A DNA stretch of 64,000 nt from an uncultured Gammaproteobacteria bacterium (GCA_964443495.1 CAYUCS010000002.1:196021-260020), one strand, 5' to 3'; positions 45,701 to 64,000 are shown, counted from the first letter of the stretch. Program-made: numbers and translations. Notes: generated by a model not told the origin, from the letters alone.

Positions 45701-46884
45701 AATACGCTCGAGCCATTACCAGGAAGTCCGAAAATATTGCCGTTGCCGTCCGAAACCAGCGATCCGCCATTGTATACGCCAACACCAAAATCGGCCTTAC
45801 TAGTCCAGACATTAGAAGCTATGTTATATTGATAAAAAGTCGAATTGTATTCCCCCTGAAAGGCAAACATGTTGCCATTGCCATCAAAAGCCATCGCGGA
45901 GCCGTGCCAATAATTCACCGGAAAATTAGCTTTGGCCGTCCAGTTATTGGCAGCAATGTCATATCTGTAAAAAGCGTTGCTATTACCTCCTAAAAGAGAA
46001 AAGAAGCCGCCATTGCCATCATATGCAAGAGAGGCGCCCAAAGTTGCTCCTGGTGAAGGCAGGTTTGCCTTTGTGACCCAAGTGTTAGAAGCGATACTAT
46101 ATTTCCAAAACCCTGTTCCGCCCCATCCAGCCAAAGCGTAAAAATTACCATTACTGTCATATGCCAGCCCGGTGGCATACTGAGTGGCCAATGGTGTATT
46201 TGCCAAGACGCTCCAGGTGTCGGCCGAGGAAAGCTTATTTAATTGCACATTGCCCGCAGCCCCGCTGCCGTTGACCAGCACGCTCGATGAAGCTACGGCG
46301 CTCAAGAAGTCTGCGTCAGATGTCTGCGTTTTTGAGGCAGAAGAGGTGGCGACTTGTACGGTCGAACCGACCAGCTTGATGCTTGAGGATGCATTAAGGT
46401 AATAATTCCAGCCGGTGCGATTGCTGGCATGGGTGGCGACGGTCGTAGTAGCACCGCCGGACCAGCCGGACTGGTTCCAGCCGAAAGTAGCGGCTTGTCC
46501 TGGCAGCTTGCCGCCGAAAAGAAAGTTGGTAATCAGCGAAGTTGTGACGGAAACGACAACCAGGGCAGTCGCACCTGCGACGGAAAAGAGCCTGATGCGC
46601 TGGCGGATGGCCTTAAATTGGTGATATGAGTAGGGACAGCTCTTTAACTCACGCTGCCGAAAAAAAAGATTGAAAGAGTCGCCAGGATCGGAAAATAAAA
46701 TCACGATGAACTTGACGTTATCGGTGACGATTTGCCAAAACACCAGCTGGATATTCAGGATGATCAACTCAAAATAAAATAGCCTGGTAGCATAATCCTC
46801 TCCTAAGCGCGCCTCAAGCTTACTGGAAAGCTTGATTTCAGTAATTTGTATTTTTGATTGTAAGAATTTATACAGGGTAAGCAT
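39781..46884 (-). CDS. Giant membrane-anchored surface protein (up to 2367 aa): two six-bladed Kelch-like beta-propellers, beta-sandwich domains, ~9 Fn3-like domains and a coiled coil
   Basis: Twelve ~47-aa blades in two sets of six with the motif [FW][YWR][KR]Y[NS]IA.N.WT...(L)AYDGNGN[IFM][YF], for example AYDSNGNFY, AYDGNGGFF, AFDGNGNMF. Repeated Fn3-like units include VSWDTD..VVYY, IAWETD..YVVF, ISWTTDEASNSFVSYG. Coiled-coil segment: LDQIDALLTQIAALQ...LQSQVASLQQQLAAANA. TM anchor: IRLFSVAGATALVVVSVTTSLITNFLF. The true start is uncertain (see findings). Confidence 0.85.
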   Translation of the reverse strand: MLTLYKFLQSKIQITEIKLSSKLEARLGEDYATRLFYFELIILNIQLVFWQIVTDNVKFIVILFSDPGDSFNLFFRQRELKSCPYSYHQFKAIRQRIRLFSVAGATALVVVSVTTSLITNFLFGGKLPGQAATFGWNQSGWSGGATTTVATHASNRTGWNYYLNASSSIKLVGSTVQVATSSASKTQTSDADFLSAVASSSVLVNGSGAAGNVQLNKLSSADTWSVLANTPLATQYATGLAYDSNGNFYALAGWGGTGFWKYSIASNTWVTKANLPSPGATLGASLAYDGNGGFFSLLGGNSNAFYRYDIAANNWTAKANFPVNYWHGSAMAFDGNGNMFAFQGEYNSTFYQYNIASNVWTSKADFGVGVYNGGSLVSDGNGNIFGLPGNGSSVFKKYNIAANTWTPVADTPVTVNNTDNVLTYDGNGNIYLGPVTGGGFYKYNIAANSWTAKASGLSCGNHCGALAYDYNGSVYSLNGNLTNSFRKYNINDVFANSGTIESATIDLGAKSFLTTLNYSSSTPAGTTLQLQIATADAVGGPWVYVGPNGATSTYFTTPGQAVPASLNQKRYFRYKAYLSGGGWSSMPVTLANVGHGGASVYDNNGNVYVTQGGYNYGFYKYNIASGTWSTKTNVYSHEGGGIAYDNKGYIYYIAGNTASLNRYSIAANTWTSTGPPYMPSTHMGAGMSFGYNGNIYAPAGYSGSSFYLYNTASNTWTSLSPVPSGVYNHSATAYDGNGNMFMFAANDSATFYKYNLATNAWSTMAPAPAVTNDGASLAYDFNGNIYAFRGRSTTEFWRYSITSNTWTVMTNAPANVYDGGSLTYDMNGNLYAFRGNNTNAFWRYSINNNATPILNDVTLNYNYYATSSYLTSSAYDTTDGGNLLSDIQWVESLATGTDITFQLRTSPDGSSWTEWYGPTGTTTSYTDYTGAAEGVASVLGDGSNDKWIQYRTRLTSAGDYTPTLSGVTLTYVVNVVPELYIATTTPLVLSATGSVAIDYAVRDTDSITGTKIPGEVVIRLQYCTANCAATGTEVWATADAATISGQYATTSVDTASSTNYTNYSLLWNAKANYPDQYNGANFKVRLSADDTEGANNISYSTSNYFILDTKNPILGATPVIVDARANPATVTLSATDNSTFAYKLWTDLDAYDPLSDNSAWPAYLANATMTLPTGPLATTVYAAFRDAYNNITTTSTTLPEQLLMTMIQDTSNVKTAGQEEYRLFISWKRPTSTPVHGFRRYDIYRATAASGPYSLIATTTVFNVNYFTDVDMPSVIDVWYKAAIEDNDGNISYLSDAMWGNANGIQDRGEGGGGAGTVPPVISSIATSSVFTTQATVSWDTDMLSDSVVYYQTGTSSCDFSAATSVGLATMVNNAAGLGRHQVTITSLLPNTTYYFQARSTGAGGVTGLSTCDTLAPAFTTQSGPSIVASSTQVTSVANNTVDIAWETDQNADSYVVFSTNPTMAGSVELGSSDSVMSHAVTLFGLNPGTKYYFYVKSSNARDDNSGNYFTFTTTRDLTPPTISNITSSATNNSAVIQFATAKPATTTVILTTSDETWAMTIDTLNTAHRFDFAGLTAATIYSIAIEARDANGNTDTDNTATTTTLAAPDTTAPTIATSSDFIVTSQTNAVITWTTPDETATGYVEYATTNVTSTFESTYKQVGRSDLSNSHVVAIDGLTANQTYYFRIRSTDASGNTTVMPAAPDFYSFSAIVQPLAISNVATSTITDTSAVITWSTNHQSDSSVIYGTQSDTYTLNQANAASTTEHTIILNGLASTTQYFFRVVSNDALGQTATSSEYSFTTADAPIDPAAYQDKLDQIDALLTQIAALQATASSTGSADAATISSLQSQVASLQQQLAAANAKGGGGTLIIDKTDKVAPKISNIKTDEVKAESARISWTTDEASNSFVSYGTGTTSGSFGDWQNVTNHSAELKGLVPATTYSYKVASMDASGNLSVSSDQTFTTPTLEAQLKDEGKTDEEIKKLTEEAASKEENKTNILLAAAAKAMEIMSQVANQVSLGTLETTLLTQFDTIEKLAGSIPGPILGGEPLVVTGATTATISWNTDKNSNSMVSYAPEGSYLQGKYIQTVGEANDFTKAHQVKVSGLKPDTTYHYQLRSKAPVGPESKSRDFVFTTREETLEIVNSSSEVVSAQEAVFRWATNIESVGQLIITPYHSGKLAVEESQTIDDKARSTRHEARVKDIESGIIYKVAMKAVDDKKRTAEEIIDPFTTSKDDLPPQITNVQTESALSQGKQLKVQTIVSWQTNEPTVGQVQYVKGVVTDDKEFPDKTALETTYSRKHVAVVTKFDSGTVYTFRITATDSSGNKTTSKVYTILTPKQKESVFQLILKNFEDIFGWVGKVGN

Positions 46885-47015: not shown

Positions 47016-47891
47016 CTATTTCACTAATTTTCCCATCAATCCGGAAAGCTCTTCATCGCTGTAAAAATCCACGACGATCTGCCCGCCCTTGGATTTGCGC
47101 CTAATCTCCACCTTAGTGCCGAGCGCCGTCCGGAGTTTCTGCTCCTTGTCCTGGTCCTGCAGGTTCGGCTGGACGCGCGCCTGCTTGGTGCCACCCATCT
47201 TGCGCGATTCATGTGCTGCATCGTTGACCGACAGGCCGGTGTGGACGATATTGCGATACAGAGTCATCTGCTTGACCTCGGTGTCCAGACCCAGGATCAG
47301 CTTGGCGTGACTCTCGGTAATCTTGCCCTCTATCAGCCCCTGCTGGATATCATTAGGCAAGTTGAGAAGCCTGATCGTATTAGCAATGCTCGGTCGCGGT
47401 TTGCCTAGGCGCTTGGACAAATCTTCCTGACTCAGGTTGAACTCGTTCATCAGCTTCTGATATGACAAGGCCGTTTCAACAGGATTCAGGTTCTCGCGCT
47501 GGATATTCTCTATCAAGGCGATTTCTAGCATTTCCTGCTCCTTGGTGTCGCGCACGATGACCGGCACGGTTGGCAACTTCAAAATCCGAGCAGACCGCAA
47601 ACGGCGCTCGCCGGCAATCAATTCATAGCCGTTACCTTTCTTGGTGACGATCAACGGCTGGATGATGCCATACTGCCTGATCGATTCGACCAATTCGTTC
47701 TGCTGCTGTTCGGAAAACTGCTTGCGTGGCTGCAAATGATTGACGACGACATCGTTCGGTGCCAGATGCAAGATGCGATCCTTGTCCGATTCGCTGGTCG
47801 TAGCAACGATAGTTTCGCCGCTCTCAGTCGTCACCTTATTCACTTTTTGCGGGATGAGCGAACCCAATCCGCGACCTAAAGCTGTGGCCAT
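47016..47891 (-). CDS. parB: Chromosome partitioning protein ParB/Spo0J
   Basis: 291 aa. GRGLGSLIP, IQPLIVTKKGNGYELIAGERRLRSARILKLPTVPVIV and an HTH region LSQEDLSKRLGKPRPSIANTIRLL. Confidence 0.95.
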   Translation of the reverse strand: MATALGRGLGSLIPQKVNKVTTESGETIVATTSESDKDRILHLAPNDVVVNHLQPRKQFSEQQQNELVESIRQYGIIQPLIVTKKGNGYELIAGERRLRSARILKLPTVPVIVRDTKEQEMLEIALIENIQRENLNPVETALSYQKLMNEFNLSQEDLSKRLGKPRPSIANTIRLLNLPNDIQQGLIEGKITESHAKLILGLDTEVKQMTLYRNIVHTGLSVNDAAHESRKMGGTKQARVQPNLQDQDKEQKLRTALGTKVEIRRKSKGGQIVVDFYSDEELSGLMGKLVK

Positions 47892-47983
47892 GTTTTGAAA
47901 TTTTAAATTTAAAATTTTAAATTTTTAAACCGCCAGTACGCAGCGGGCCTGCAAATGTCTCAGCTGACGGAAAAAATCAATGC

Positions 47984-48748
47984 CTACTTCTCTAATCCAA
48001 TCACTTCCCTGGCTAACCGCTCGTACGCTTTGCCGCCCTTGGAGTTCTTGTCATAATGCAGAATCGAGCGGCCGAACGACGGCGACTCGGCCAGACGGAC
48101 GCTGCGCGGAATCACTGAACGGAAAATACGATTCGGGAAATATTGATAAAGCTCCTGCATGACTGAATCGGACAAGCGGTTGCGCTTGTCGAACATGGTA
48201 ATGACCGCGCCCATAATTCCCAAATCCGGCTTCAGGTTGGCCTGCACCAGGTTGATAGTGTTAAGAAGCTGGCCCAAGCCTTCGAGCGCATAGTACTCGC
48301 TCTGGATCGGGATAAGCACCTCGTCCGAGGCGACCAAACTGTTAACGGTTAGTAAGCCGAGCGAAGGCGGGCCGTCGATTATGATATAGTCATATTCATC
48401 CTTGATCTCATCCAGAATCTGCTTCAAGCGGTATTCGCGCTCATCCATGCCGACCAGCTCGATACCGGCACCAGCCAACGAGGTGGTAGCCGGAGCCACA
48501 TGATAGCCCGATTGCATGGTCTGTTTCACGATATCGAATATCTCTTTTTCGCCAAGCAAAGCTTCATAAAGGCCGTGTTCCAAATTCTTGTGGTCGATAC
48601 CCAGTCCGGAAGTGGCATTGGCCTGCGGATCCAAATCAACCAAAAGGACCTGGCGGCCAAGGTGCGCCAAATAAGCCCCCAGATTGACTGCTGTGGTGGT
48701 CTTGCCGACTCCGCCTTTTTGATTGACTACTGAGATTATTTTGCCCAT
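47984..48748 (-). CDS. parA: ParA/Soj family partitioning ATPase
   Basis: 254 aa with deviant Walker A MGKIISVVNQKGGVGKTTTAVNLGAYLA, plus LLVDLDPQANAT and IIIDGPPSLG. Confidence 0.95.
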   Translation of the reverse strand: MGKIISVVNQKGGVGKTTTAVNLGAYLAHLGRQVLLVDLDPQANATSGLGIDHKNLEHGLYEALLGEKEIFDIVKQTMQSGYHVAPATTSLAGAGIELVGMDEREYRLKQILDEIKDEYDYIIIDGPPSLGLLTVNSLVASDEVLIPIQSEYYALEGLGQLLNTINLVQANLKPDLGIMGAVITMFDKRNRLSDSVMQELYQYFPNRIFRSVIPRSVRLAESPSFGRSILHYDKNSKGGKAYERLAREVIGLEK

Positions 48749-48809
48749 ATTAGCCCAAACTTCAAAATAAGGGTAAATCGACCCTTGATTCCGGCTTAAA
48801 TATAGCGTA

Positions 48810-48838
48810 ATTATAACCTAAAAAAAGGGCTTTGACAA
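48810..48838 (-). promoter_or_regulatory. Candidate parA promoter (TTGTCA-17-TATAAT)
   Basis: The minus strand reads TTGTCA, 17 nt, TATAAT. Its -35 overlaps the -35 of the divergent tRNA promoter, offset by 1 nt. Confidence 0.55.
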
Positions 48839-48860
48839 TTTATATTTCCTTTATTATAAT
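48832..48860 (+). promoter_or_regulatory. Consensus sigma70 promoter of tRNA-Leu (TTGACA-17-TATAAT)
   Basis: TTGACA at 48832..48837, exactly 17 nt of spacer, TATAAT at 48855..48860. The tRNA starts 41 nt downstream of the -10. Confidence 0.8.
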
Positions 48861-48900
48861 ACTATAAAAGCTGGCATGTGCCCGTTTTTTTGTGAAATTA

Positions 48901-48984
48901 GCCTGGGTGGTGAAACTGGTAAACGCGCACGACTCAAAATCGTGTGGGAGTGATCCCTTGAGGGTTCGAGTCCCTCCCTAGGCA
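48901..48984 (+). tRNA. tRNA-Leu (anticodon CAA), class II with a long variable arm; CCA not encoded
   Basis: Manual cloverleaf. Acceptor gcctggg/cctaggc (one G-U). Anticodon stem cacga/tcgtg with loop ctCAAaa (CAA at 48935..48937). Variable arm ggga-gtga-tccc. T arm gaggg-ttcgagt-ccctc. Discriminator A. Confidence 0.9.
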
Positions 48985-49449: not shown

Positions 49450-50505
49450 TTATTCGAAATCCGGCTCAGACCGCTCCCCTCTCCGGCGCGCCAACACGTC
49501 GCCGATAAATACGCTGATGGCGGCTGCCACTGGAATGGATAGGATGGCCCCGGGTATGCCGCCGACATTGAAGCCGATCATGAAAACCACGATACTGATG
49601 ATCGGATTAAGCCCGATCGTCTTCTGCATGATTTTAGGCACCAAAACATTGTTCTCAATCAGTTGGGTGATATAAAAGAAGATTGCTACAAAAACTGCCA
49701 AGATCGGCGATTGGGTGAATGCCAAAAATACTGCCGGTACCGCACCCAAAGTCGGACCGATATACGGAATGGCTTCGCTAATGCCGGCAATCAAGGCCAG
49801 TACCAAAGCATAATTGACCTTCATTATAGTCAACCCAGGCCATACCATGAAGAAGATTATCAGACACAAGATTAGCTGGCCGCGAAGCCACAAACCGATC
49901 TTCTTCTGCATCCGATTAACCAAATCAAGGATATACTGCTGGTTATGCACGGGGGTGATCAGCCAGACCAGACGCTTGATCGCGTTCTCTTCGACCGTCA
50001 TATAAAAAGTGATAACCAAAACTAAGATAGTCGAAAAGATGCCGCCAAAGATACTGAAAACGAAACCGAAGATATTGCCGGCCGCGCCTGACAGATTGGA
50101 ATTGAAGGAGTTAAGATTGCTGGTTAGCGTATCGGAAATGCCCGCCTTGATCGAAAAATCTTTGATGCTGTCGAACAACTGGGTCAGCTTTTCCTGGTAA
50201 TGAGGGTAATTTTGGGAAAAAGCGCCGATTTCCTTGGCGATCGGCGGAGTAATCATATAGACCGCTGATCCTAGGACAAAGAACAAAGCCAGGTAAATCA
50301 GCAGGATGCCCAACGAACGCGGGATTCTCTTTTTCTGGAGCCAATCGACCCAGGGATCAACCGCGCTGGCCAAAACCAGGGAAATAAATAGGATCATCAG
50401 GATGTCCCGAACAAAATACAGGAAATACACCAGCAAAGCGACACCGACCACTTTGAACATGGTTTTGGTGCTGATATTTATCTCTGGAATCTTATTCAAT
50501 GTCAT
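49450..50505 (-). CDS. AI-2E family transporter (PerM/YhhT-like, UPF0118)
   Basis: Polytopic membrane protein with the family-typical C-terminal region GISEAIPYIGPTLGAVPAVFLAF..LVPKIMQKTIGLNPIISIVVFMIG. I place the start at ATG 50505 (MTLNKIPE...) because TATAAT (50512..50517) lies 6 nt upstream and a terminator occupies 50550..50577. The ORF-track start at 50568 falls inside that terminator. Confidence 0.8.
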   Translation of the reverse strand: MTLNKIPEINISTKTMFKVVGVALLVYFLYFVRDILMILFISLVLASAVDPWVDWLQKKRIPRSLGILLIYLALFFVLGSAVYMITPPIAKEIGAFSQNYPHYQEKLTQLFDSIKDFSIKAGISDTLTSNLNSFNSNLSGAAGNIFGFVFSIFGGIFSTILVLVITFYMTVEENAIKRLVWLITPVHNQQYILDLVNRMQKKIGLWLRGQLILCLIIFFMVWPGLTIMKVNYALVLALIAGISEAIPYIGPTLGAVPAVFLAFTQSPILAVFVAIFFYITQLIENNVLVPKIMQKTIGLNPIISIVVFMIGFNVGGIPGAILSIPVAAAISVFIGDVLARRRGERSEPDFE

Positions 50506-50549
50506 GTCTATATTATATGACAATAATCGCGGGTGCACAACAAAGCGGC

Positions 50550-50577
50550 AAAAAAAGAACCCCTTCAAGGAAGGGGC
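50550..50577 (-). terminator. Rho-independent terminator overlapping the stop codon of the 105-aa ORF
   Basis: The minus strand reads ccccttc-ctt-gaagggg followed by TTCTTTTTTT. The TGA stop (50565..50567) spans the loop and 3' arm of the hairpin (ccTTGAagggg). Confidence 0.75.
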
Positions 50578-53481: not shown

Positions 53482-54555
53482 TTATTCGATGACCTTGAAC
53501 ATCCGATCATCAAGATTAGTGACAGTAGTCAGCGGATGCATGTACCCGAGCATGTCGGGGTAATCCTTCATGATCTTCAGTCCGAGCTTGCGATAGCCGA
53601 GAGCCCTCTCCCTGGCACGGTCGAAGGTCAGGCCGTTTTCGTTGCCGAAAGCGGCAGTGGATAAGAGAACAAAACCGTCCTCTTTCTTGATCCGCCCGTC
53701 AGCGATATTGTGCTGGACGACGCCGATCGCCTCGCGTATGGCCTCTTCCGGTTCGTCTGAATACATCCCGACGATCAATGCCAGATTAGGCTCATAGATC
53801 GAATCCGCGCCGCGACCGATGACGATGACCCTTTCCTTGTGGTCTAGGTCGGCTATCGGCCGGTTCGAGCTTCGAACCTCAGCTGTGTGTTCCATGTTCT
53901 TCTGTGCCATGAAGCACAGATCACCGATGGCGCTGCTGGGTTTCTTGGGGAGAATCTTCCTGAACTCAGCCAAGAGAAATCTTTTGAGCTCGCTCTCAGA
54001 ACAGAAGTTACTGATGTCCAGCGCGCCCAAGTCGAGCTTGTCGCCTTTGTCCCCATGAAAGACCAGAGAGTCTTCATCAGTTTCCAGTCCGACTACGATC
54101 GGAATCATCGATTCCGTGTTGTCGCCATAGACGCGCCTGAACTGCTCTTGCAGTCCGAACATGCCAGCGATGGCCGCCTCTTTGTCAAAATTGAAGCCCT
54201 TACAGCCGCGAAACTTGTCTCCCTTTGACCAGTGATAGTTCAGCATGGCCAAACTGCCCTTGCCCTCCTCTTTCAAGTGGTGCATGTAGCAGCGGAAAAC
54301 CGCCTCGTCGAATTTCTCCCACTCCAGATTGAAGCGGGCACCCAGGTTGCGGAAATGCTTGCCGACTCCGACCGGCACCTTGGTGACTTTCGGGATATCG
54401 ACGCGGCTGTCCATGCAGACGACCCACATCTTGAAATACTTTTCTTTGGCCCGGTAAAAGAGCCGGTTAGACCTCGCGGTGGCGCTAGCGAAAAGCTTGG
54501 AACAGCGCCGGTTGATGTTGATTACTTCTTGGACCAGTGTCGGACGATTCAGCAT
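53482..54555 (-). CDS. Carbonic-anhydrase-like protein with a beta-CA CxDxR motif and extended His...Cys spacing (CsoSCA/DabA-like), 357 aa
   Basis: VVCMDSRVD (Cys-x-Asp-x-Arg, nt 54403..54417) is the beta-class CA active-site signature. NYHWSKGDKFRGC supplies a His (54232..54234) 61 residues later and a Cys (54202..54204) 10 residues after that. This resembles the Cys/His/Cys spacing reported for CsoSCA rather than the canonical HxxC. Start placed at ATG 54555, preceded by AGGAGGG; the track start at 54630 has no SD and lies ~25 nt from the predicted transcription start. Confidence 0.5.
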   Translation of the reverse strand: MLNRPTLVQEVININRRCSKLFASATARSNRLFYRAKEKYFKMWVVCMDSRVDIPKVTKVPVGVGKHFRNLGARFNLEWEKFDEAVFRCYMHHLKEEGKGSLAMLNYHWSKGDKFRGCKGFNFDKEAAIAGMFGLQEQFRRVYGDNTESMIPIVVGLETDEDSLVFHGDKGDKLDLGALDISNFCSESELKRFLLAEFRKILPKKPSSAIGDLCFMAQKNMEHTAEVRSSNRPIADLDHKERVIVIGRGADSIYEPNLALIVGMYSDEPEEAIREAIGVVQHNIADGRIKKEDGFVLLSTAAFGNENGLTFDRARERALGYRKLGLKIMKDYPDMLGYMHPLTTVTNLDDRMFKVIE

Positions 54556-54659: not shown

Positions 54660-54688
54660 ATATTACCACAAAAATGGCATTCTGTCAA
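54660..54688 (-). promoter_or_regulatory. Promoter of the CA-like operon (TTGACA-17-TAATAT with TGG extension)
   Basis: The minus strand reads TTGACA (54688..54683), a 17-nt spacer ending in TGG, then TAATAT (54665..54660). Confidence 0.7.
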
Positions 54689-55127: not shown

Positions 55128-56687
55128 TTACATGTCCGTGCCGGAGTAGCTCAGGTTGAGCGACTTGTTGCACAACGGAAAGTCAGGCACGATGTTGCCC
55201 GGGCCAATAATGGCGAAGAGCGCCCAGTTGCAGAACGAAGGATCGCGCGGGAAACAGCGCTCGATGCGTCCATCCTTCAAGTGGACAGCGCAAAGAACCT
55301 CCCCGCGCCAGGATTCGACCGCGCCGATGGCCATGCCTTCGGTAACCTGGACATCGGCCTTGATCGGGCCGCTCGGCAGGTTGTGGCAGATCTTGTTGAG
55401 CAAAGAAAGGATGGCGTCGCATTCGCGGATACGCGCAGTGTAACGACCGTAAACATCACCGGTCGGCTTAGTGACCACGGTTACCGGATATTGGGCATAA
55501 GTAGCGTACGGGTGGTCGCGGCGGACGTCGCGGTCCAGGCCGGAAGCCCGGGCCGGCAAGCCGACCGCGCCAAAAGCCTTGGCCGCTTCGAGCGGCAAGC
55601 GGCCAGTCGTCTGCAGACGATCGAGGAAACCGTCCGAGCCGAAAGCGGTCACGACGATGCTACGCATCTCGACCCAGGCCTCTTCCGCCACCTTAAGCAG
55701 CTTCAGTATCTCAGCATCTTCAAGATCCTTGGATACGCCGCCGGGGACAACAAAGCCGCGCCAGAAGCGATTGCCGAAAACCTCCTCGGAAGAGAGCATC
55801 AGGCGTTCCTTGATGCGGAAGCCGTTGGCTGCGATAAAGCTGTAGCCGGTACCCATGCCGCCGATGTTAGCTAGGTCGTGGATGTGCATGGTCAAACGCT
55901 CCATCTCGGTCACCAAAGTGCGCAAGAACTGCGCCCGTTGCGGCACCTCGCACTTGGCAATGGTCTCGACCGCCTGGACGAAGGCCAAAGCATTGGCGGC
56001 GGCCATATCGCCAGACAGGCGCTCGATGAATGGCAGCGCCTCAGCAGGCGTCTTGCCTTCCAGCAGCTTCTCGACGCCCTTGTGGGTGAAGAACAGTTTG
56101 CCTTCGAGCGTCAGGATGCGTTCGCCCGCTACATTGAAGCGGAAGTGTCCGGGCTCGATGATGCCGGCATGGATCGGACCGACCGGTATTTCGTAGATGC
56201 CCTCGCCTTCGACGTGGCCCATCGGGTACGGCTCGTTGGCATGATCCAATTTCTTATTCCAGGCAAAATCCTTGCGCAAAGGATAGGTGCCGTTGGGGAT
56301 GTTTTCGTGGTTGACGAGGCGGCGCAGATCGGGGTGCCCTTCCGGCACGATGCCGAACATATCATGGAGGTAGCGCTCATACCAATGAGCCGCCATCACG
56401 GTCGCGGTCAGCGACGGATAGCGCGGATCATCGGCCGGCACAGCGGTCGAAAGCAGCAGCCACTCGTGCTCTGCGTCCAGCGACAGCAAGGCGTGGACCT
56501 TGAAAGTGCCGTCGGCCGCTCGCTCATCGGTAGCATAGACCAAGGACAGTGGCAGGTCATGCTCATTGGCCAAGGCAGTCACGGCCTCGGCGAAAAACTC
56601 GCGTTTTACCGCCGCCTTCTGGACGCCCTGCTCCTTGCCTTCCATCGTTACCCCTTGCAGCTCTTTGAGTATATCTAGTGCTTTCAT
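55128..56687 (-). CDS. Group-4 [NiFe]-hydrogenase large-subunit-like protein (HycE/HyfG-type NuoC+NuoD fusion) lacking all four NiFe cysteine ligands
   Basis: N-terminal NuoC-like WYERYLHDMFGIVPEGHPDLRRL, then GPIHAGIIEPGHFRF and FTHKGVEKL. The RxCGxCxxxH position reads ERLSGDMAAAN (56004..56024). The C-terminal DPCxxCxx[HR] position reads NLSYSGTDM-stop (55131..55163 covers SLNLSYSGTDM). Start placed at ATG 56687 (MKALDILKEL), 4 nt after the upstream stop; the track start at 56855 overlaps the preceding gene by 164 nt. Confidence 0.85.
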   Translation of the reverse strand: MKALDILKELQGVTMEGKEQGVQKAAVKREFFAEAVTALANEHDLPLSLVYATDERAADGTFKVHALLSLDAEHEWLLLSTAVPADDPRYPSLTATVMAAHWYERYLHDMFGIVPEGHPDLRRLVNHENIPNGTYPLRKDFAWNKKLDHANEPYPMGHVEGEGIYEIPVGPIHAGIIEPGHFRFNVAGERILTLEGKLFFTHKGVEKLLEGKTPAEALPFIERLSGDMAAANALAFVQAVETIAKCEVPQRAQFLRTLVTEMERLTMHIHDLANIGGMGTGYSFIAANGFRIKERLMLSSEEVFGNRFWRGFVVPGGVSKDLEDAEILKLLKVAEEAWVEMRSIVVTAFGSDGFLDRLQTTGRLPLEAAKAFGAVGLPARASGLDRDVRRDHPYATYAQYPVTVVTKPTGDVYGRYTARIRECDAILSLLNKICHNLPSGPIKADVQVTEGMAIGAVESWRGEVLCAVHLKDGRIERCFPRDPSFCNWALFAIIGPGNIVPDFPLCNKSLNLSYSGTDM

Positions 56688-56691
56688 ATGT

Positions 56692-58164
56692 TTATTTGGT
56701 TGAAATATAAACGGCATCATTGACAACGCCTTGGACGAAATCAAGTCCCGGCACCGAGGTGACCCAAGCCGCGAAAACGAAAAGCGCGACGAGCTGGACC
56801 AGCATGACGGAATGGGTGATGTTCCAGCGTTCGGTCTTGGCCGGAGCGGAGTCATCGTGTCCGAAAAGCATCGGCAGCACCAAACGCAGCATCGAATAGG
56901 CGATGACGCTCAACGAGATGAAGAGCAGCAGGGCCAAGAGCGGATACTGCGCCAAAGCGCTGGCGAACATGGCGTATTCACTGACGAACAAGGCGGACGG
57001 CGGCATGGCCACGATGGCCAGCATGCCGAAGAGGAACAGGATGGCGGTATAGCGGTCGTGGGCGAAGACGCTCTTGACCTTATCGACCGTAGTGGTCTTC
57101 CAGCGCAAGAGGATCTCTCCGGCTCCGAAGAACAAAAGCGACTTGGTCAGGGTGTGCCCAACCATATGGATGACAGCGGCGATAGCGCCCAGCGGCGAAA
57201 GGCCGAGGGCGAAGCTGATCAAGCCCATATGTTCGATGCTAGAATAGGCCAACATGCGCTTGTAATTGTTCTGGACGATCATCATCAAGGCCGAGAGGAC
57301 GATCGAGGCGGTGCCGAAAATCAGGAAAAAATTGCTGGTCCAGCCGGAATGGAGCGAACTGTTAGCCACATAAGCGAAACGCATGATGGCGTACAGGGCG
57401 ACGTTCAGGAGGATGCCGGAAAACAGACCGGAAATCGGTGACGGCGCCTTGCTGTGCGCGTCAGGCAGCCAGGTGTGCATCGGGGCTAAGCCGACCTTAG
57501 CACCGAAGCCGACAAACAGGAAGACGAAGGCCAGTTTGACCGTGCCGGCTGAGAGCAGCGGCGCGTTGTGCTGGAGCGAGGTCAGGAGGAACATATCGAT
57601 GCCGGTCGCTCCAGCCAGGCGTGAACCATAACCCAGAAGCAGGATGCCGATCAGGCCCAAGCTGATGCCGGTCGAGCAGATGATGATATATTTCCAGGCG
57701 GCCTCGACTGAGGTCTTCTTGCGGTACAGCCCGACCAGGAAAGTCGAGGATAAAGTCGTGCCTTCAAGCGCGATCCATAAAAGCAAAGTGTTATTGGTCA
57801 GGACCGTCACGATCATGGTCAGCGCGAAAAGATGCAGGAGTGAGAAGTACAAGCGGACGTCGTTGGCGGTGATTATGCCCTCATGATGCTCGTGGCCGAT
57901 ATAGCGGACACTGACAAGCGTGGCGGCCATATAGACGACAGCGACCAAGGCGGCGATCAGTGCGGAAAAGCGATCGACCAAAAGCAGCTGGCTCGACCAG
58001 GAAACGGAGGCGCCGGACAGCACTGGCAGGACCAGGGCCAAGACCGCTCCGCCGCCGACCAGGGCGGCGATGCCGGAAATTGTCCGGACCGCCTTTTCTT
58101 TGGAGATGATGGCAGCGGCCAATGAAGCGGAAACGAATACTGCTAGAACGATGATGAAGTTCAT
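56692..58164 (-). CDS. Antiporter-like membrane subunit (HyfF/HyfD, NuoM/N family)
   Basis: 490 aa, polytopic. Contains WKYIIICSTGISLGLIGILLLGY and PMHTWLPDAHSKAPSPISGLFSGILLNVALYAI, typical of the proton-conducting membrane transporter family. Confidence 0.85.
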   Translation of the reverse strand: MNFIIVLAVFVSASLAAAIISKEKAVRTISGIAALVGGGAVLALVLPVLSGASVSWSSQLLLVDRFSALIAALVAVVYMAATLVSVRYIGHEHHEGIITANDVRLYFSLLHLFALTMIVTVLTNNTLLLWIALEGTTLSSTFLVGLYRKKTSVEAAWKYIIICSTGISLGLIGILLLGYGSRLAGATGIDMFLLTSLQHNAPLLSAGTVKLAFVFLFVGFGAKVGLAPMHTWLPDAHSKAPSPISGLFSGILLNVALYAIMRFAYVANSSLHSGWTSNFFLIFGTASIVLSALMMIVQNNYKRMLAYSSIEHMGLISFALGLSPLGAIAAVIHMVGHTLTKSLLFFGAGEILLRWKTTTVDKVKSVFAHDRYTAILFLFGMLAIVAMPPSALFVSEYAMFASALAQYPLLALLLFISLSVIAYSMLRLVLPMLFGHDDSAPAKTERWNITHSVMLVQLVALFVFAAWVTSVPGLDFVQGVVNDAVYISTK

Positions 58165-58167
58165 ATA

Positions 58168-59766
58168 TTACTCGGTTAAATTGCGTAATTTTTCCGTATC
58201 AGTCGAGTCGTAGAACTGCCTGATGCGCGCGCTCAAAATCGACAGGATGAACGCGCTGGCGATGGTGACTGAGAATACCCCCATCTCGACGAGCAAAGGC
58301 AAAGATTCGACCGTCACCAGGACGAAAATCGCGATGCCGTTCTCGATTATCAGCAAGCCGACGATCTGGGAAAAGACGTTGCGATGGACGATCATCATAG
58401 CCAGTCCCAAGGCGATCATAGCCACGGAAATGAACAGCATGTTGCTGTAGCCGATAACGCCGGAAAGGGTGATCTGCCTGACCGCGAAAAAGGCGACGGC
58501 CAGGATGGCGATGGCCAAGAGATAGCTCGAGGCCGGCCGCAGGAACGAGGCCAAGCTGACGATCTTCCTCTGGCGCCGCTGGATATAGCTGACCAAATAA
58601 GGGACGGCGATCGATTTGACGAGGATGGTGACCGCGGCAAAGATCCACAAGTGCCCCTTCTCTTCCGGCCGCAGGAACGAGAGCCCCACGGCGATACCAG
58701 CGATAGACAGTGAAGAGAGAGCGTAGTAGCGCAGAATAGCCTTCAGCCTGACGCGGCCGAAAAGCAGCACCACGAAGATCAGGGCCAATGCGGCAAAGAA
58801 GGCGTGATACTGGACGGCGACGTTGCCGTAACGGGCATACATCGTAATGATCATGCCGGCCAGGGCGGCCATAAAGGCCAAGGACAGGTACTCCTGCATG
58901 CGGTAGAAGCGCATCTTGACGATGGTCGATTCAAGCAAAGCCAGAAGCACCATCGCGATGATGACTTTAGCCGCAGCTGCCAGCAAGCCGACCACAACGG
59001 CTGCGAACGATAACCCTGCACCGGCAAAAATCAGCGTGCCAGGGAAAACAAGGTTCGCGATCAAAAGCGAGAAGACGGTCAATTTGATAGCGGAAGCGTA
59101 TTCGAGCATGGCCAGATAAGGGCCGGAATATTCCAAGATCATGGCCTCATGGACCATGGTCAGTTCGAGGTGGGTGGCCGGATTGTCAACCGGATAGCGC
59201 GCATTCTCAGCCAGCGCCACCAAGACCAAAGCGATTATCGAGAAGATCAGATAGGGGTGGGACAAGAGCAGGCCACGGCCTACCATGCCATCGATCATGA
59301 ACGAACCGGTAACGACGCTCAATGTGGCGAAGACCATGATGATGATCGGCTCGACCAAGGAAGCGAGCGTCATCTCGCGGCTGGAGCCCATGCCGCCGAA
59401 GGCGCTGCCCGGGTCGATGCCGCCCAGGACCAAAAAGATCGAGCCGACAACCAGAACGCCGCTGATTACCAAGAAGTCAGACAGCGAAGCCAGGCTGCCG
59501 CCCTGGAAGATGAGGGGCAAAACGAGCATCAAGATAGCGCTCGATGACAATACCACGAACGGAACCGCGCGGAAAATCCAAGAAGTTGCGCTCGAGATGA
59601 CCATCTCTTTGCGGAAAAGCGTAGCGAAAGTAGCGTACGGCAAGAACGGCGAAGCGCCGCGTCGGCCCTGCAAGCGCGCCTTGCAGAACCGCACCAAACC
59701 GGCCGCGAACGGGGCGATCGAAAGGATGAAAAGCCCCTGCAATATTGTTGCTAATATCAGGTTCAT
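58168..59766 (-). CDS. Fusion of a HyfC/HycD (NuoH-like) subunit and a HyfE (NuoK-like) membrane subunit
   Basis: 532 aa. The N-terminal ~310 aa (..RLQGRRGASPFLPYATFATLFRKEMVISSATSWIF..) match the HycD/HyfC pattern. The C-terminal ~220 aa (..HRNVFSQIVGLLIIENGIAIFVLV..) match the HyfE pattern with a membrane-embedded Glu. From memory, E. coli HyfC is ~315 aa and HyfE ~216 aa, which sums to this length. Confidence 0.7.
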   Translation of the reverse strand: MNLILATILQGLFILSIAPFAAGLVRFCKARLQGRRGASPFLPYATFATLFRKEMVISSATSWIFRAVPFVVLSSSAILMLVLPLIFQGGSLASLSDFLVISGVLVVGSIFLVLGGIDPGSAFGGMGSSREMTLASLVEPIIIMVFATLSVVTGSFMIDGMVGRGLLLSHPYLIFSIIALVLVALAENARYPVDNPATHLELTMVHEAMILEYSGPYLAMLEYASAIKLTVFSLLIANLVFPGTLIFAGAGLSFAAVVVGLLAAAAKVIIAMVLLALLESTIVKMRFYRMQEYLSLAFMAALAGMIITMYARYGNVAVQYHAFFAALALIFVVLLFGRVRLKAILRYYALSSLSIAGIAVGLSFLRPEEKGHLWIFAAVTILVKSIAVPYLVSYIQRRQRKIVSLASFLRPASSYLLAIAILAVAFFAVRQITLSGVIGYSNMLFISVAMIALGLAMMIVHRNVFSQIVGLLIIENGIAIFVLVTVESLPLLVEMGVFSVTIASAFILSILSARIRQFYDSTDTEKLRNLTE

Positions 59767-61760
59767 AGGGCGATGATTAATGTGACGATTAAGGTAAGCA
59801 GCAGGAACGCCAGATAATACTGCACGCGGCCGCTCTGGATAGCTTTGACCCGGTCAGCAGCGAAGACGAAAGACCGGGCAATCGGCTGATACAGCTTCTC
59901 TTTCCAACCGGAAGTTATGACCAAGGAAAAGCTGTATTTCCTGATCCAAGGATTGGTTTCGATAACCGGCACCGACTTGATCATCTTGATGCTTGAAAGA
60001 AAGCGGAGGAAGAAGAAGCGGACGGGCGCCGAAAAAGCAGTGGCAGTATATTCCATGGTCGAATTGATCGGCTGGCCGCAATCCCAAGTATGATATTCCC
60101 TCTCGATATTCTTGGACATTATAATTTTCTTGATCAGCCACACTAGCGCGAGAACTCCGAAGGATGCCACGAACAGCACCGAAGAAGAGAGCGCGCTATT
60201 GAGCTCGACCGTACCGACGGAGGCACCGCCCAAGCCCAGATTCGCCAGGAGCCAATCAAGAGCCGGGCGAGCGAAAGCGCCAAGTACCAGCAAAGACGCG
60301 GACAGGGCGAAAATCGGCCAAGTCAGAAGGCGATCATGGCTTTCCGGCTCGTCATCCAGGTGCTTGGCGCGAGACAAGCCGAGCATCGAGATGCCAAACA
60401 CCCTGACCATGGCGAATATCGCCAAGCCGCCGATCAGGCCGATCGAACCGAGGACGGTCAGAAGAACGGTAATGCCGTTGACGCCTAGATATGCTCCGCT
60501 GAGCAGACTGACGATGGTCTGGATAAGGCCCCACTCTCCGTAGAAAGTGGCGAACGGCGCCAAAGGCAGCGATCCGAGGATGGCCAAAAGGAAAGCTAGC
60601 GTAAAGAAAGGCAAAAGCTTTGCCAAGCCGCCCATGACTTCCAAGCTTTTGGAATGGACGCGGCTGATGATGACGCCGCTCGACAAGAAGAGGGCCGTCT
60701 TGAAGAACATATGGCTCAAGGCATGGAACAAAGCGAAAGTCACGATAGTCAGGGCAAGCAGCCGTCCAGCTCCTTGGCCTGCTTGCGACATCAGGTACAG
60801 GCCGAGTCCGAGCATCGTGAAGATGATACCCATGTTCTCGATACTGCTGTAGGCAAAGACCCGTTTAAGATCCTTTTCGATCAGGGCATAAAGTACGCCG
60901 ACCGCGCCAGAGAACAGCCCCAAGCCAATAACCAGAAGTCCCGCCCAAGAAGGCAGCTGAGCAAAATTGAAAACAACGGCAATGAAGCCGTAAACAGCGA
61001 CTTTAAGCATCAAGCCAGACATCATGGCCGAAATGTTGCTCGGAGCCTGAGGATGAGCCTCTGGCAGCCAGACGTGGAATGGCACCAAACCAGCCTTCGA
61101 ACCGAAACCGAACAGGAAGAGCACGAAAGCTGAAGCCAGAAGTGCCGGTGAAAGACCGGCAGTAGCAGCGCTGATGTCGCGCAGATCAAGGAGCAACGAA
61201 CCATGGCTCAACAGCAGGAACCCGCCCATGATGGCCGAAGCTCCGAGATGAGTCATTATGAAATATAGGAATGCCGCACGCAGCGATTCCTGGGTCTTGT
61301 CCGCCATGACCAGGAAAAACGAGCTGATCGACATCACCTCCCAGAAAAACAGGAAGCCGAAAGCGTTGTTGGCAAGCAGCACGCCCTGCATCCCAAGTAC
61401 GAAGATAGCGGTCAGCGACTGCACCATTCCAGGATTATAGGTCTTGGCGTAAAGAGTGAGGTAGCGCAAGCTATAAACGCCAACCAGCGCGGAAACCAAG
61501 CTGATGGCGGCAAAGAAGATGCTTGAAAGCACGGTCAGCCTCGGAGCGAACTGGAAAAACCAGCCGTAGCTGCCCAGAACCAGTTCAGTGCCGGGGAAAT
61601 ACAAAAGGTAAGCCGCGCCTGCGACAAAACCGACAAGGTTGGCGAACGAAAAGATGACGGCGGCAGGCTTAAAGAAGCCTTTCACCAGGGCCAGCAAAGC
61701 CGCGACGGCCAAACCGCCGAAATAGATCGCAATGCAGTTAATTATAAGATTCTCGGTCAT
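59763..61760 (-). CDS. Antiporter-like membrane subunit (HyfB/HycC, NuoL family)
   Basis: 665 aa, polytopic. Contains FHVWLPEAHPQAPSNISAMMSGLMLKVAVYG and a C-terminal extension with HTWDCGQP...YTATAFSAPVRFFF typical of HycC/HyfB. Its stop overlaps the downstream start by 4 nt. Confidence 0.85.
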   Translation of the reverse strand: MTENLIINCIAIYFGGLAVAALLALVKGFFKPAAVIFSFANLVGFVAGAAYLLYFPGTELVLGSYGWFFQFAPRLTVLSSIFFAAISLVSALVGVYSLRYLTLYAKTYNPGMVQSLTAIFVLGMQGVLLANNAFGFLFFWEVMSISSFFLVMADKTQESLRAAFLYFIMTHLGASAIMGGFLLLSHGSLLLDLRDISAATAGLSPALLASAFVLFLFGFGSKAGLVPFHVWLPEAHPQAPSNISAMMSGLMLKVAVYGFIAVVFNFAQLPSWAGLLVIGLGLFSGAVGVLYALIEKDLKRVFAYSSIENMGIIFTMLGLGLYLMSQAGQGAGRLLALTIVTFALFHALSHMFFKTALFLSSGVIISRVHSKSLEVMGGLAKLLPFFTLAFLLAILGSLPLAPFATFYGEWGLIQTIVSLLSGAYLGVNGITVLLTVLGSIGLIGGLAIFAMVRVFGISMLGLSRAKHLDDEPESHDRLLTWPIFALSASLLVLGAFARPALDWLLANLGLGGASVGTVELNSALSSSVLFVASFGVLALVWLIKKIIMSKNIEREYHTWDCGQPINSTMEYTATAFSAPVRFFFLRFLSSIKMIKSVPVIETNPWIRKYSFSLVITSGWKEKLYQPIARSFVFAADRVKAIQSGRVQYYLAFLLLTLIVTLIIAL

Positions 61761-61764
61761 ATGT

Positions 61765-62307
61765 TTATTTCTGTGCTTGATTATGGAGAGCTTCCAGGAT
61801 GCCTTTGAGCATGGCGGTCGGTGTCGGCGGATCGCCAGGAATGCGGACGTGCACCGGGATGACGGCCTCGACCGGACCGACTACCGCATAGGAATCCTTC
61901 CAAATGCCTCCAGTGCAAGCGCCGTCACCGACGGCGACGACGATGCAAGGCTGCGGCGCAGCTTCGTAGGTGGTACGAACCGCAGTTTCCAGATTCCTGG
62001 TTACGGGACCGGTCACGAAAAGCATATCGGCGTGGCGCGGCGAAGCGACAAAACTCAAGCCGAAGCGATCAATGTCATAATAAGCATTGTTCAAAGCAGT
62101 CAGTTCGATCTCTTCGGCATTGGTCGAACCTCCATCGACCGCCCGGATGCGCAACGAGCGCCCTCCATAAAGCCGATCAACGATCTTTTTCACTTCCGCA
62201 CCCGCTTTCTCGAAAGCCTCGTCCCCGGTTTTTTCGAGGATCTTTTCCTTTTTTTCGGTCACTTTCGGCGGGAACAGCAAAAACCCTAGCAATTTTAACA
62301 GTCTCAT
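61765..62307 (-). CDS. NuoB/HycG-like small subunit lacking 3 of 4 [4Fe-4S] cysteine ligands
   Basis: 180 aa with conserved ASPRHADMLFVTGPVT. The GSCNGCE position reads GSTNAEE (62110..62130). GACTGG retains one Cys. The PGCPP position reads PGDPP (61825..61839). Confidence 0.8.
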   Translation of the reverse strand: MRLLKLLGFLLFPPKVTEKKEKILEKTGDEAFEKAGAEVKKIVDRLYGGRSLRIRAVDGGSTNAEEIELTALNNAYYDIDRFGLSFVASPRHADMLFVTGPVTRNLETAVRTTYEAAPQPCIVVAVGDGACTGGIWKDSYAVVGPVEAVIPVHVRIPGDPPTPTAMLKGILEALHNQAQK

Positions 62308-62375: not shown

Positions 62376-62403
62376 ATTGTAATACTCCTATCGAAAAAAT
62401 CAA
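62376..62403 (-). promoter_or_regulatory. Candidate promoter of the Ehr-like operon (TTGATT-16-TACAAT)
   Basis: The minus strand reads TTGATT (62403..62398), 16 nt, TACAAT (62381..62376). It lies between the atpC terminator and the ATG at 62307. Confidence 0.45.
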
Positions 62404-62419
62404 GGCTAATAATAAACAA

Positions 62420-62453
62420 TAAAAATACCACCTTACGAAAAATAAGGTGGTAT
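62420..62453 (-). terminator. Rho-independent terminator downstream of atpC
   Basis: 11-bp stem ataccacctta / taaggtggtat with a 7-nt loop, followed on the minus strand by TTTTTATTG. Confidence 0.85.
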
Positions 62454-62461
62454 CTTGATAC

Positions 62462-62902
62462 CTAATCGATCTTGACGTTGTGACGTGTATGATGTTTTTT
62501 GGCAACCTTGATGCGGGCCAATTCCTTTTCGATAGCTGCTGCGACGCGAGCATATTCCATTTCGCCCATAGTAACCTTCTCTTTCTTAAGCTCTTCGGCG
62601 CGCTGGCGAGCAGCCTCGGCGCGCTGCAAATCGATTTCCGCTGCGGCTTCGGCCGTGTCAGCCAGAACTATCAGTTCGTTATTATTGAATTCGATAAAAC
62701 CCCCGGAAACCGCCATGCTGACCTCATCTTCGCCGTCCTTGAGCATGATCTCGCCCGGCTTCAGCGCGGCGATGTAGGAACGATGGTTAGGCAGGATCGT
62801 CACCTGGCCATCAACCACCGGCAAGGTGGCTTGGCCGACCTGGCTTTCATAAACCGTACGTTCCGGAGTGACTATCTTGAATTTTATAGTTTGGTCGGAC
62901 AT
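62462..62902 (-). CDS. atpC: F-type ATP synthase subunit epsilon
   Basis: 146 aa. KFKIVTPERTVYESQVGQATLPVVDGQVTILPNHRSYIAALKPGEI... plus a helical C-terminal domain. It lies immediately downstream of atpD. Confidence 0.9.
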   Translation of the reverse strand: MSDQTIKFKIVTPERTVYESQVGQATLPVVDGQVTILPNHRSYIAALKPGEIMLKDGEDEVSMAVSGGFIEFNNNELIVLADTAEAAAEIDLQRAEAARQRAEELKKEKVTMGEMEYARVAAAIEKELARIKVAKKHHTRHNVKID

Positions 62903-62910
62903 AAATTATT

Positions 62911-64000
<1,090 letters not shown>

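Follow-up and report, generated by a model that had tools for sequence, protein, structure and literature searches.

We analysed a 64,000-nucleotide stretch of DNA, hereafter the window, which is assigned to an uncultured Gammaproteobacteria bacterium (GCA_964443495.1, CAYUCS010000002.1:196021-260020). All positions are counted from its first letter. [quoted passage not shown] The five open reading frames (ORFs) are co-oriented and either spaced by 3–4 nt or overlapping by 4 nt, and Pfam and NCBIfam profile scans, on which the assignment of subunit domains is based, agree with a previous description of the locus, made from the sequence alone (the sequence-only reading), as a five-gene Hyf-type operon with spacings of at most 4 nt. 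The cluster is preceded by ATP synthase (atp) genes and followed by a carbonic anhydrase (CA) gene. These are the two most informative neighbours, and both had been overlooked in the sequence-only reading.

The first gene (61765..62307) encodes a NuoB/HycG/MbhJ-like small subunit of 180 aa (PF01058, 4.1e-24), which was aligned to 6cfw_J (4.1e-28) and 7z0s_G. It is followed by the gene (59763..61760) for a HyfB/NuoL/MrpA-like antiporter-type subunit of 665 aa (PF00361, 1.2e-43; NF005086, "hydrogenase 4 subunit B", 1.3e-132). The third gene (58168..59766) encodes a 532-aa fusion protein, in which a NuoH/HyfC-like part (residues 12–308; PF00146, 2.9e-27) is joined to a HyfE/NuoK-like part (residues 325–530; PF00420, 5.4e-6; NF008556 HyfE, 3.8e-21). 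A HyfF/NuoM-N/MrpD-like antiporter-type subunit of 490 aa (56692..58164; PF00361, 3.1e-53; NF005044, 1.3e-108), which was aligned to MbhH (6cfw_H) and NuoM, comes next. The last gene (55128..56687) encodes the large subunit, a HycE-like NuoC-NuoD fusion of 519 aa (PF00329, PF00346 and PF00374). We discarded a 575-aa form of this protein, starting at position 56855, and adopted the 519-aa one, since its homologues measure 517–521 aa and the extension would run into the HyfF-like gene.

The NuoH-like and NuoL-like membrane genes (PF00146, and PF00361 twice) sit together with the large- and small-subunit genes, as in group 4 hydrogenases. The NCBIfam scores of all cluster proteins are far under the curated equivalog cut-offs, and therefore none of them qualifies as a true Hyf protein. 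For every subunit, the best sequence matches are found in the Hyf/formate hydrogenlyase (FHL) system of E. coli (HycE, 7z0s) and in the membrane-bound hydrogenase (Mbh) of Pyrococcus (6cfw), which share with the window complex the fused NuoC-NuoD large subunit, HyfB/HyfF-type antiporter-like subunits and HyfE. In contrast to these systems, the window complex features neither a NiFe site nor a proximal cluster, and lacks HycF/MbhN and the Mrp-type small subunits. Hence, the four NiFe cysteines, the proximal [4Fe-4S] cluster and the 2x[4Fe-4S] ferredoxin-like subunit encoded at the locus (HycF/HyfH/EchF/MbhN), all hallmarks of group 4 [NiFe] hydrogenases, are missing. Complex I (Nuo/NDH-1) differs in having N2 ligands, a NuoI-type motif and separate NuoA and NuoJ subunits, none of which is encoded by the five genes of the window cluster.

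The loss of the catalytic site is evident in the alignment of the large subunit with HycE (7z0s_E; phmmer, 3.4e-69), its closest solved relative, in which "erlSGdM" lies opposite "drvCGiC" and "nlSysGtd" opposite "dpCysCtd". Residues S225, M228, S513 and G516 thus occupy the four NiFe columns, and all four cysteines are gone. In the small subunit, alignments to MbhJ, HycG and NDUFS7 place T62, E65, G129 and D159 in the four [4Fe-4S] columns. Cysteines are replaced by threonine and glutamate in the motif GSTNAEE and by aspartate in the motif PGDPP (canonically PGCPP), while the third column is occupied by glycine, with one cysteine found two residues further on. The whole protein contains two cysteines. 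In the alignments with HycE, MbhJ, HycG and NDUFS7, residues other than cysteine are found throughout the NiFe and N2 columns. The sequence-only reading had recognized the substitution of both NiFe motifs; in the small subunit it had counted three of four cluster ligands as lost, and although the loss holds, the count does not, as all four strict columns are devoid of cysteine.

A scan of species-representative genomes identified 80 loci, mostly from Patescibacteria, or Candidate Phyla Radiation (CPR), whose members are ultra-small bacteria, with some from Acidobacteriota, and clade counts refer to this set. In the large subunits of these 80 relatives, the NiFe columns read S (78/80), M, A or S, S (79/80) and G (80/80). 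In 68 small subunits, the [4Fe-4S] columns read T, S or N in the first position, E (68/68) in the second, G (68/68) in the third, and D, N or S in the fourth; the displaced cysteine is kept in 54 and absent in 14. The residues replacing the ligands are conserved in their own right, and ligand loss is a property of a large clade. The earlier statement that "this copy" had lost its last Fe-S relay was thus correct as to the loss and too narrow in confining it to one copy, as the loss extends to a whole clade, of which 80 genomes were covered.

Complexes of this family that lack the catalytic cysteines are called energy-converting hydrogenase-related (Ehr) complexes. Published examples come from Margulisbacteria, Saganbacteria, Elusimicrobia and Nitrospirales, and their function is stated as unknown (PMC6349859; bioRxiv 10.1101/765248; PMC12342949), as the sequence-only reading had also stated. 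The window cluster resembles Ehr clusters in its group-4-like set of subunits, in the absence of NiFe ligands from the large subunit and in the clustering of NuoB-, NuoH- and antiporter-like genes. It differs in that the small subunit lacks the canonical [4Fe-4S] ligands, all four of which are kept in sister Ehr clusters, a comparison in which the Ehr small-subunit requirement is taken from secondary quotations and may not match the original definition. The defining paper is reportedly that of Marreiros and co-workers from 2013. Published Ehr models assume redox coupling via a retained N2-type cluster. A further difference concerns the genetic context, as the window cluster is linked to atp and CA genes and has neither a ferredoxin-like subunit nor a formate dehydrogenase (FDH)/NuoEF neighbour of the sort put forward for FDH-Ehr.

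At a threshold of E ≤ 1e-10, the large subunit has more than 5,700 homologues. Identity to the window protein is 61–87% for the top 120, which are nearly all full-length, at about 519 aa, and where a source is named it is almost always a member of the Patescibacteria/CPR (Moran-, Falkow-, Uhr- or Parcubacteria). The five-gene order is retained in every complete locus. The same Fe-S-less cluster, at about 57% identity, was also observed in Acidobacteriota/Vicinamibacterales, which have large genomes (loci L059-L070 and L073). These loci feature no atp or CA neighbours, and no common theme emerged among the genes that surround them. The occurrence of the cluster in Acidobacteriota suggests that it either was transferred across widely separated lineages or is of ancient origin.

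Divergent Ehr clusters, in which the large subunit is 38–45% identical and genes are arranged in the order HyfB-CE-F-CD-B, lack the NiFe cysteines and keep all four N2 cysteines (L110, L121, L128, L134, L143, L152 and L156). Similarly, among the 150 closest small-subunit representatives, taken at the 50%-identity level from 1.84 billion proteins, 88 read CCCC and some 30 exhibit various Cys-poor patterns. Because the four cluster cysteines are kept both in sister Ehr clusters and in 88 of 150 representatives, the Fe-S-less state is derived. Among close small-subunit representatives (P0151-P0300), Cys-poor patterns other than T/S/N-E-G-D recur, such as D-V-D-D and D-A-A-D. Cluster ligands may have been lost in more than one event among NuoB-like relatives.

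Conserved sets of three or more alternative cysteines were found in neither the large nor the small subunit. ORFs carrying the CxxCxxCxxxC[PAG] motif, typical of ferredoxin, NuoI and HycF proteins, occur neither in the window, as previously noted, nor in the 80 related loci with flanks of up to ±10 kb. Also in line with the sequence-only reading, no hyp or hycI domains were detected among the window ORFs scanned. These data bear on the hypothesis that the complex is still a redox enzyme, in which an unlinked electron-input module, either ferredoxin-like or a formate dehydrogenase, docks on the peripheral arm and a non-canonical cofactor site is used. Such an arrangement has been the subject of speculation for other Ehr complexes, namely FDH-Ehr (PMC6349859), and would fit both the retention of four N2 cysteines in sister clades and the partial conservation of Cys121, Cys131 and His153 of the small subunit, which are found in most members. 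Nevertheless, none of the eight canonical ligand columns holds cysteine anywhere in the clade, the small subunit has its two cysteines only, and ferredoxin-type motifs are absent within about 10 kb in 80 genomes. Moreover, from the structures of complex I, Mbh and FHL, we know of no electron path to the membrane interface that dispenses with an N2-type cluster. We consider a redox role very improbable.

In contrast to cofactor ligands, residues of the ion channels are retained. In the HyfB-like subunit, E141 in transmembrane helix (TM) 5, K222 in TM7, K253 in TM8 and K354 in TM12 are each conserved in no fewer than 63 of 65 relatives. In the HyfF-like subunit, E134 and K341 are found in all 75 relatives, and K223 in 74. 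The position of the TM8 lysine is occupied by N254, with asparagine in 69 of 75 clade members, whereas HyfB-like proteins keep lysine; one of the two antiporter-type channels may therefore work differently. The NuoK-like glutamates E475 and E494 are kept in 30 of 30 fused relatives, and many acidic residues are invariant in the NuoH-like part. The median identity to the window proteins is higher for the peripheral subunits (73% and 63%) than for the membrane subunits (44–47%). Since the peripheral arm outranks the membrane arm in conservation, decay is unlikely, and the pattern suggests that the peripheral arm keeps an important job.

One could also regard the cluster as what is left of a hydrogenase operon in decay, now devoid of function; the argument for this relic hypothesis is the loss of all catalytic ligands. 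The five reading frames are, however, intact, the gene order is conserved across phyla, replacement and channel residues are near-invariant, and the closest of the more than 5,700 homologues have the same length and are 61–87% identical. On the strength of these conservation data the relic hypothesis can be set aside as hardly conceivable. Conversely, a non-redox, ion-translocating role of the complex is well supported, because ligands are lost clade-wide, neither a ferredoxin gene nor an alternative set of cysteines accompanies the loss, and channel residues are conserved. The proposal of the sequence-only reading, i.e., a non-redox, ion-translocating or conformationally coupled role, gains support from both ligand loss and channel-residue retention.

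The CA gene located downstream of the cluster (53482..54555, minus strand), which precedes groES and groEL, encodes a 357-aa protein that we identify as a CsoSCA-type beta-CA and as a putative partner of the complex. The protein has no Pfam match at E ≤ 0.01 and weakly matches the carboxysome shell CA model TIGR02701 (9.6e-4; 18 bits versus a cut-off of 241 bits). A homologue, P0128, matches PF20686 (CsoSCA_cat) above the cut-off (8.8e-7). Residues C47, D49, R51, H108 and C118, corresponding to the zinc-binding and catalytic set of beta-CAs and CsoSCA, are invariant in an alignment spanning 30–87% identity. The AlphaFold2 model, which has a predicted local distance difference test (pLDDT) score of 88.8, is that of a soluble alpha/beta protein. 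Foldseek searches with this model retrieved the CsoSCA structures 8thm (E 2.1e-16, TMq 0.73), 9g4t and 2fgy over both domains, followed by other beta-CAs. The window protein resembles CsoSCA in the two-domain beta-CA fold, consisting of a catalytic domain and a C-terminal pseudo-domain, and in the Cys-Asp-Arg...His...Cys site. It differs in that it lacks the N-terminal domain (357 aa versus 457–471 residues) and is 16–19% identical. Moreover, the host belongs to the CPR bacteria, and no carboxysome (cso) genes are found near the CA gene, the neighbours of which are GroES/GroEL genes and the Ehr-like cluster.

The association of CA genes with the cluster recurs in related loci. Fifty non-Acidobacteria loci have intact flanks, i.e., at least 1.3 kb on both sides, and a CA-type gene is situated no further than 1 kb from the cluster in 33 of these, or in 24 when a divergent family of beta-CA-like proteins of 210–260 aa is not counted. 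No CA-type gene detected in the ±10 kb flanks is further away than this; the gene is placed after the large-subunit gene in some loci and between atpC and the small-subunit gene in others. CA genes accompany the cluster also in loci with no atp genes upstream (L027, L030, L050 and L058). In three of these (L027, L030 and L058), a 352-aa membrane protein, by its looks similar to the AI-2E/PerM-family transporter of the window, is encoded before the CA gene and the cluster.

Cluster-adjacent CA genes belong to four lineages. A hidden Markov model of the CsoSCA-type family identified members adjoining the cluster, in either position, in 18 of the 80 genome loci, as well as in L001 and L002. Gamma-CAs of the CcmM/Cam type, in which all three His ligands are aligned (3kwc, 4.3e-36), are found in six loci, and a Pro_CA_2 protein (PF20393, 5e-13) in five. 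The fourth lineage is the family of 210–260 aa proteins, found in nine loci, in which C39, D41, H114 and C117 are invariant. The model of this family has a pLDDT of 85.7, and its top 50 fold matches in the PDB are all beta-CAs, with modest template modelling scores of 0.37–0.49. Profile-profile comparisons revealed no match to the CsoSCA-like family (probability 0.07%) and a weak match to the Pro_CA_2-like family (E 1.2e-3, probability 20%). Fold searches and the conserved C..D...H..C residues indicate that these proteins probably adopt a Cab-like beta-CA fold.

CsoSCA-like genes are also found next to more distant complexes. Locus L090, representing a second Fe-S-less CPR clade, has a CsoSCA-like neighbour, atp genes upstream and groES/EL downstream. 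In another divergent clade, the Ehr clade that keeps the N2 cysteines, a CsoSCA-like gene follows the cluster; in two loci (L121 and L143), a gene encoding a SulP anion transporter (PF00916, 4.3e-51) is interposed between the small-subunit and the CsoSCA-like genes. In a reverse scan, metagenomes were searched with the CsoSCA-like alignment. Eighty loci were identified, 32 of which have adequate flanks, and complex-type neighbours are present in 11 of the 32, among them L090, the Ehr clade that retains its Fe-S ligands, and loci in which the CA gene borders a true DabA operon with three PF00361 genes. In L139, a minus-strand operon (10570..18508) encoding DabA (PF10070, 8.6e-225) and three PF00361 proteins, instead of one, is convergent with the CsoSCA-like gene. 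By its looks, it is an unusual multi-antiporter DAB-type operon, and L161 probably carries the same. We had interpreted PF00361 genes found beside stand-alone CsoSCA-like genes as "DAB-like pairs", an interpretation dropped because the PF00361 genes of L139 belong to a genuine DabA operon.

There are precedents for the coupling of a CA to proton channels of the complex-I type, namely DAB2 (PMC13144422) and NDH-1MS (PMC6981117). In DAB/MpsAB systems, a CA is paired with proton-conducting subunits and is gradient-driven (PMC13144422). The window locus is similar in that a beta-class CA with intact zinc ligands is encoded next to a PF00361 proton-conducting partner, and in that the energy source would be non-redox. 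It differs because the CA is of the CsoSCA type (gamma-CAs or other beta-CAs in relatives) rather than DabA (PF10070), has no transmembrane finger, and is accompanied by a five-protein complex in which the NuoH/NuoK E-channel is complete and a NuoB/C/D arm is present. In NDH-1MS/MS' complexes carrying CupA/CupB, CO2 hydration is believed to be drawn off equilibrium by the proton channels in the membrane arm (PMC6981117; PMC12435202). A CA-type protein is found together with a complex-I-family machine both there and, by gene adjacency, in the window, and is likewise attached to plant and protist mitochondrial complex I, the gamma-CA subunits of which (7aqq, 6x89) are among the matches of the gamma-CA search. 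In contrast to the window complex, which has no redox centres, both NDH-1MS and mitochondrial complex I are redox-driven and keep the Fe-S chain.

On these grounds we tentatively favour the view that the complex is an ion-gradient-coupled CO2/bicarbonate machine, similar to DAB or NDH-1MS. In evolutionary terms, it could well be a redox-dead descendant of group 4 [NiFe] hydrogenases and complex I, representing a derived Ehr form. The observations on which this view builds are ligand loss, channel-residue retention, the intact active site of the CA and recurrent gene adjacency. The membrane arm, composed of NuoL-type and NuoM/N-type subunits and the NuoH-NuoK fusion, would still work as an H+ or Na+/H+ translocator, and the cofactor-less NuoB and NuoC/D arm might be a module for coupling or docking. 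In place of redox chemistry, the associated CA (a CsoSCA-type beta-CA in the window) would interconvert CO2 and bicarbonate, and the proton that it makes or uses would be passed to the membrane arm and its ion channels. Directional CO2 hydration could then be driven by the gradient of ions that the neighbouring F1Fo ATPase sets up or uses, resulting in bicarbonate accumulation or in the control of cytoplasmic pH, as in DAB pumps and NDH-1MS/CupA. A more specific version, held with greater reserve, is that of a vectorial CA, ion-gradient-driven and ATPase-linked, in which interchangeable CA heads dock on the NuoB/C/D arm or on the antiporter-like subunits.

Several data weigh against a CO2/bicarbonate machine. 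No CA gene is found nearby in 17 of the 50 CPR loci, nor near the cluster in any of the nine Acidobacteriota loci with intact flanks, and complex-type neighbours are missing in 21 of the 32 loci of the reverse scan. The CsoSCA-like family accompanies membrane inorganic-carbon and ion systems generally and is not exclusive to this complex, so that the CA may be no subunit but an accessory enzyme. A gap of 572 nt separates the CA gene of the window from the cluster, and within it lies a promoter-like site of the CA gene's own, identified by pattern matching. The modelled CA is predicted to be soluble, with no DabA-like membrane "finger". A fermentative CPR cell has no clear need to accumulate bicarbonate, and a non-canonical single-metal site may exist at Cys121/Cys131/His153 of the small subunit. 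That the CA physically associates with the complex is something we infer, as are the coupling ion and the direction in which the reaction runs.

The genes upstream of the cluster are relevant to the main alternative. The atpC gene (F1 epsilon; 62462..62902, minus strand), identified from its translation, is directly upstream and is preceded by atpD (F1 beta; 62911..63834, minus strand), the translation of which is 81–94% identical to the atpD products of related loci. The listed atpD ORF begins at an internal GTG and is probably truncated at the N-terminus. The order atpD-atpC-cluster is found in at least 30 of 50 CPR loci having enough upstream sequence. The complex might be a stand-alone Mrp-like H+/Na+ (or K+) antiporter, a secondary transporter converting one ion gradient into the other for the adjacent ATP synthase, with the peripheral arm acting as a structural cap; CA genes would be found nearby through a shared pH-homeostasis regulon or a loose "transport metabolon" providing or taking up protons, with no obligatory coupling. 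Mrp antiporters (CPA3, PMC7419157) resemble the window complex in having MrpA/MrpD-like and MrpC/NuoK-like subunits, conserved chains of Glu and Lys residues and no redox cofactors. This hypothesis fits the presence of NuoK-type glutamates and of two PF00361 subunits whose channel residues are intact, the recurrence of the atp linkage, and the fact that Acidobacteriota and a third of the CPR loci have the complex with no CA gene close by. Moreover, deactive mammalian complex I reportedly acts as a Na+/H+ antiporter (PMC3464577). However, NuoH, NuoB and NuoC/D homologues are not present in Mrp systems, and the five-gene cluster encodes no counterpart of MrpB, E, F or G. A simple antiporter also leaves unexplained both the top conservation of the peripheral arm and the presence of four unrelated CA lineages at the same two positions. 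We regard this alternative as somewhat less likely than a CO2/bicarbonate machine.

A great part of bacterial diversity belongs to the CPR, whose members are believed to have no respiratory chains. Since the complex is conserved beside ATP synthase genes in organisms thought to have no such chains, it may be one of the few energy- or ion-handling machines of CPR bacteria. Forms with no redox centres are a natural experiment, showing how complex I's membrane arm may be driven without electrons. Ehr complexes are widespread, and as late as 2025 their function was still given as unknown (PMC12342949). The recurring CA partners provide a concrete, testable hypothesis where there was none before, and point to a new class of systems that handle inorganic carbon or pH, beside DAB and NDH-1MS. 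If the complex is indeed a vectorial CA of the kind outlined above, it would represent a third independent union of a CA with proton channels of the complex-I type. It would also provide the first functional assignment of an Ehr-type complex, and a major bioenergetic or pH/CO2 device of CPR bacteria. In the literature searched, which lay mostly outside the subscription journals, we found no description of an Fe-S-less Ehr form or of its link to CA, no paper pairing "CsoSCA" with a CPR term and none linking carbonic anhydrase to hydrogenase-like complexes of CPR bacteria. Thus, Ehr complexes were already known, and the Fe-S-less form and the CA link are apparently new within that literature.

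Putative transcription signals separate the three groups of genes. A long terminator-like hairpin with a T-tract (62456..62422, minus strand) is found after atpC, and a promoter-like site (62403..62376, minus strand) precedes the small-subunit gene. The promoter-like site of the CA gene (54660..54688, minus strand) has the form TTGACA-17-TAATAT with a TG element. All three are pattern matches alone and are not evidence of function. Given these patterns, co-transcription of the atp genes, the cluster and the CA gene in the window is only a possibility. The corresponding gaps measure 10 and 118 nt in locus L001. An Rfam scan revealed nothing in the intergenic gaps, the sole match in the window being a tRNA gene at 48901..48984.

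Other features of the window lie outside the cluster. Two adjacent giant minus-strand ORFs (2088..19331, 5,747 aa, and 19526..33025, 4,499 aa) fill almost half of the window. At E ≤ 0.001, no Pfam domain was detected in the 4,499-aa protein or in the first 4,500 residues of the 5,747-aa protein. A third long ORF (39781..46884, minus strand) encodes a protein of 2,367 aa containing Kelch repeats, fibronectin-III domains and six domains of the purple-acid-phosphatase N-terminal type, and coincides with raised G+C content (0.58–0.60) and strong GC skew at 40–44 kb. A transporter of the AI-2E/PerM family (PF01594) is encoded near the cluster, at 49450..50568. The parB and parA genes are located beside the tRNA gene (47016..48984 overall), and this region may lie near the chromosome origin.

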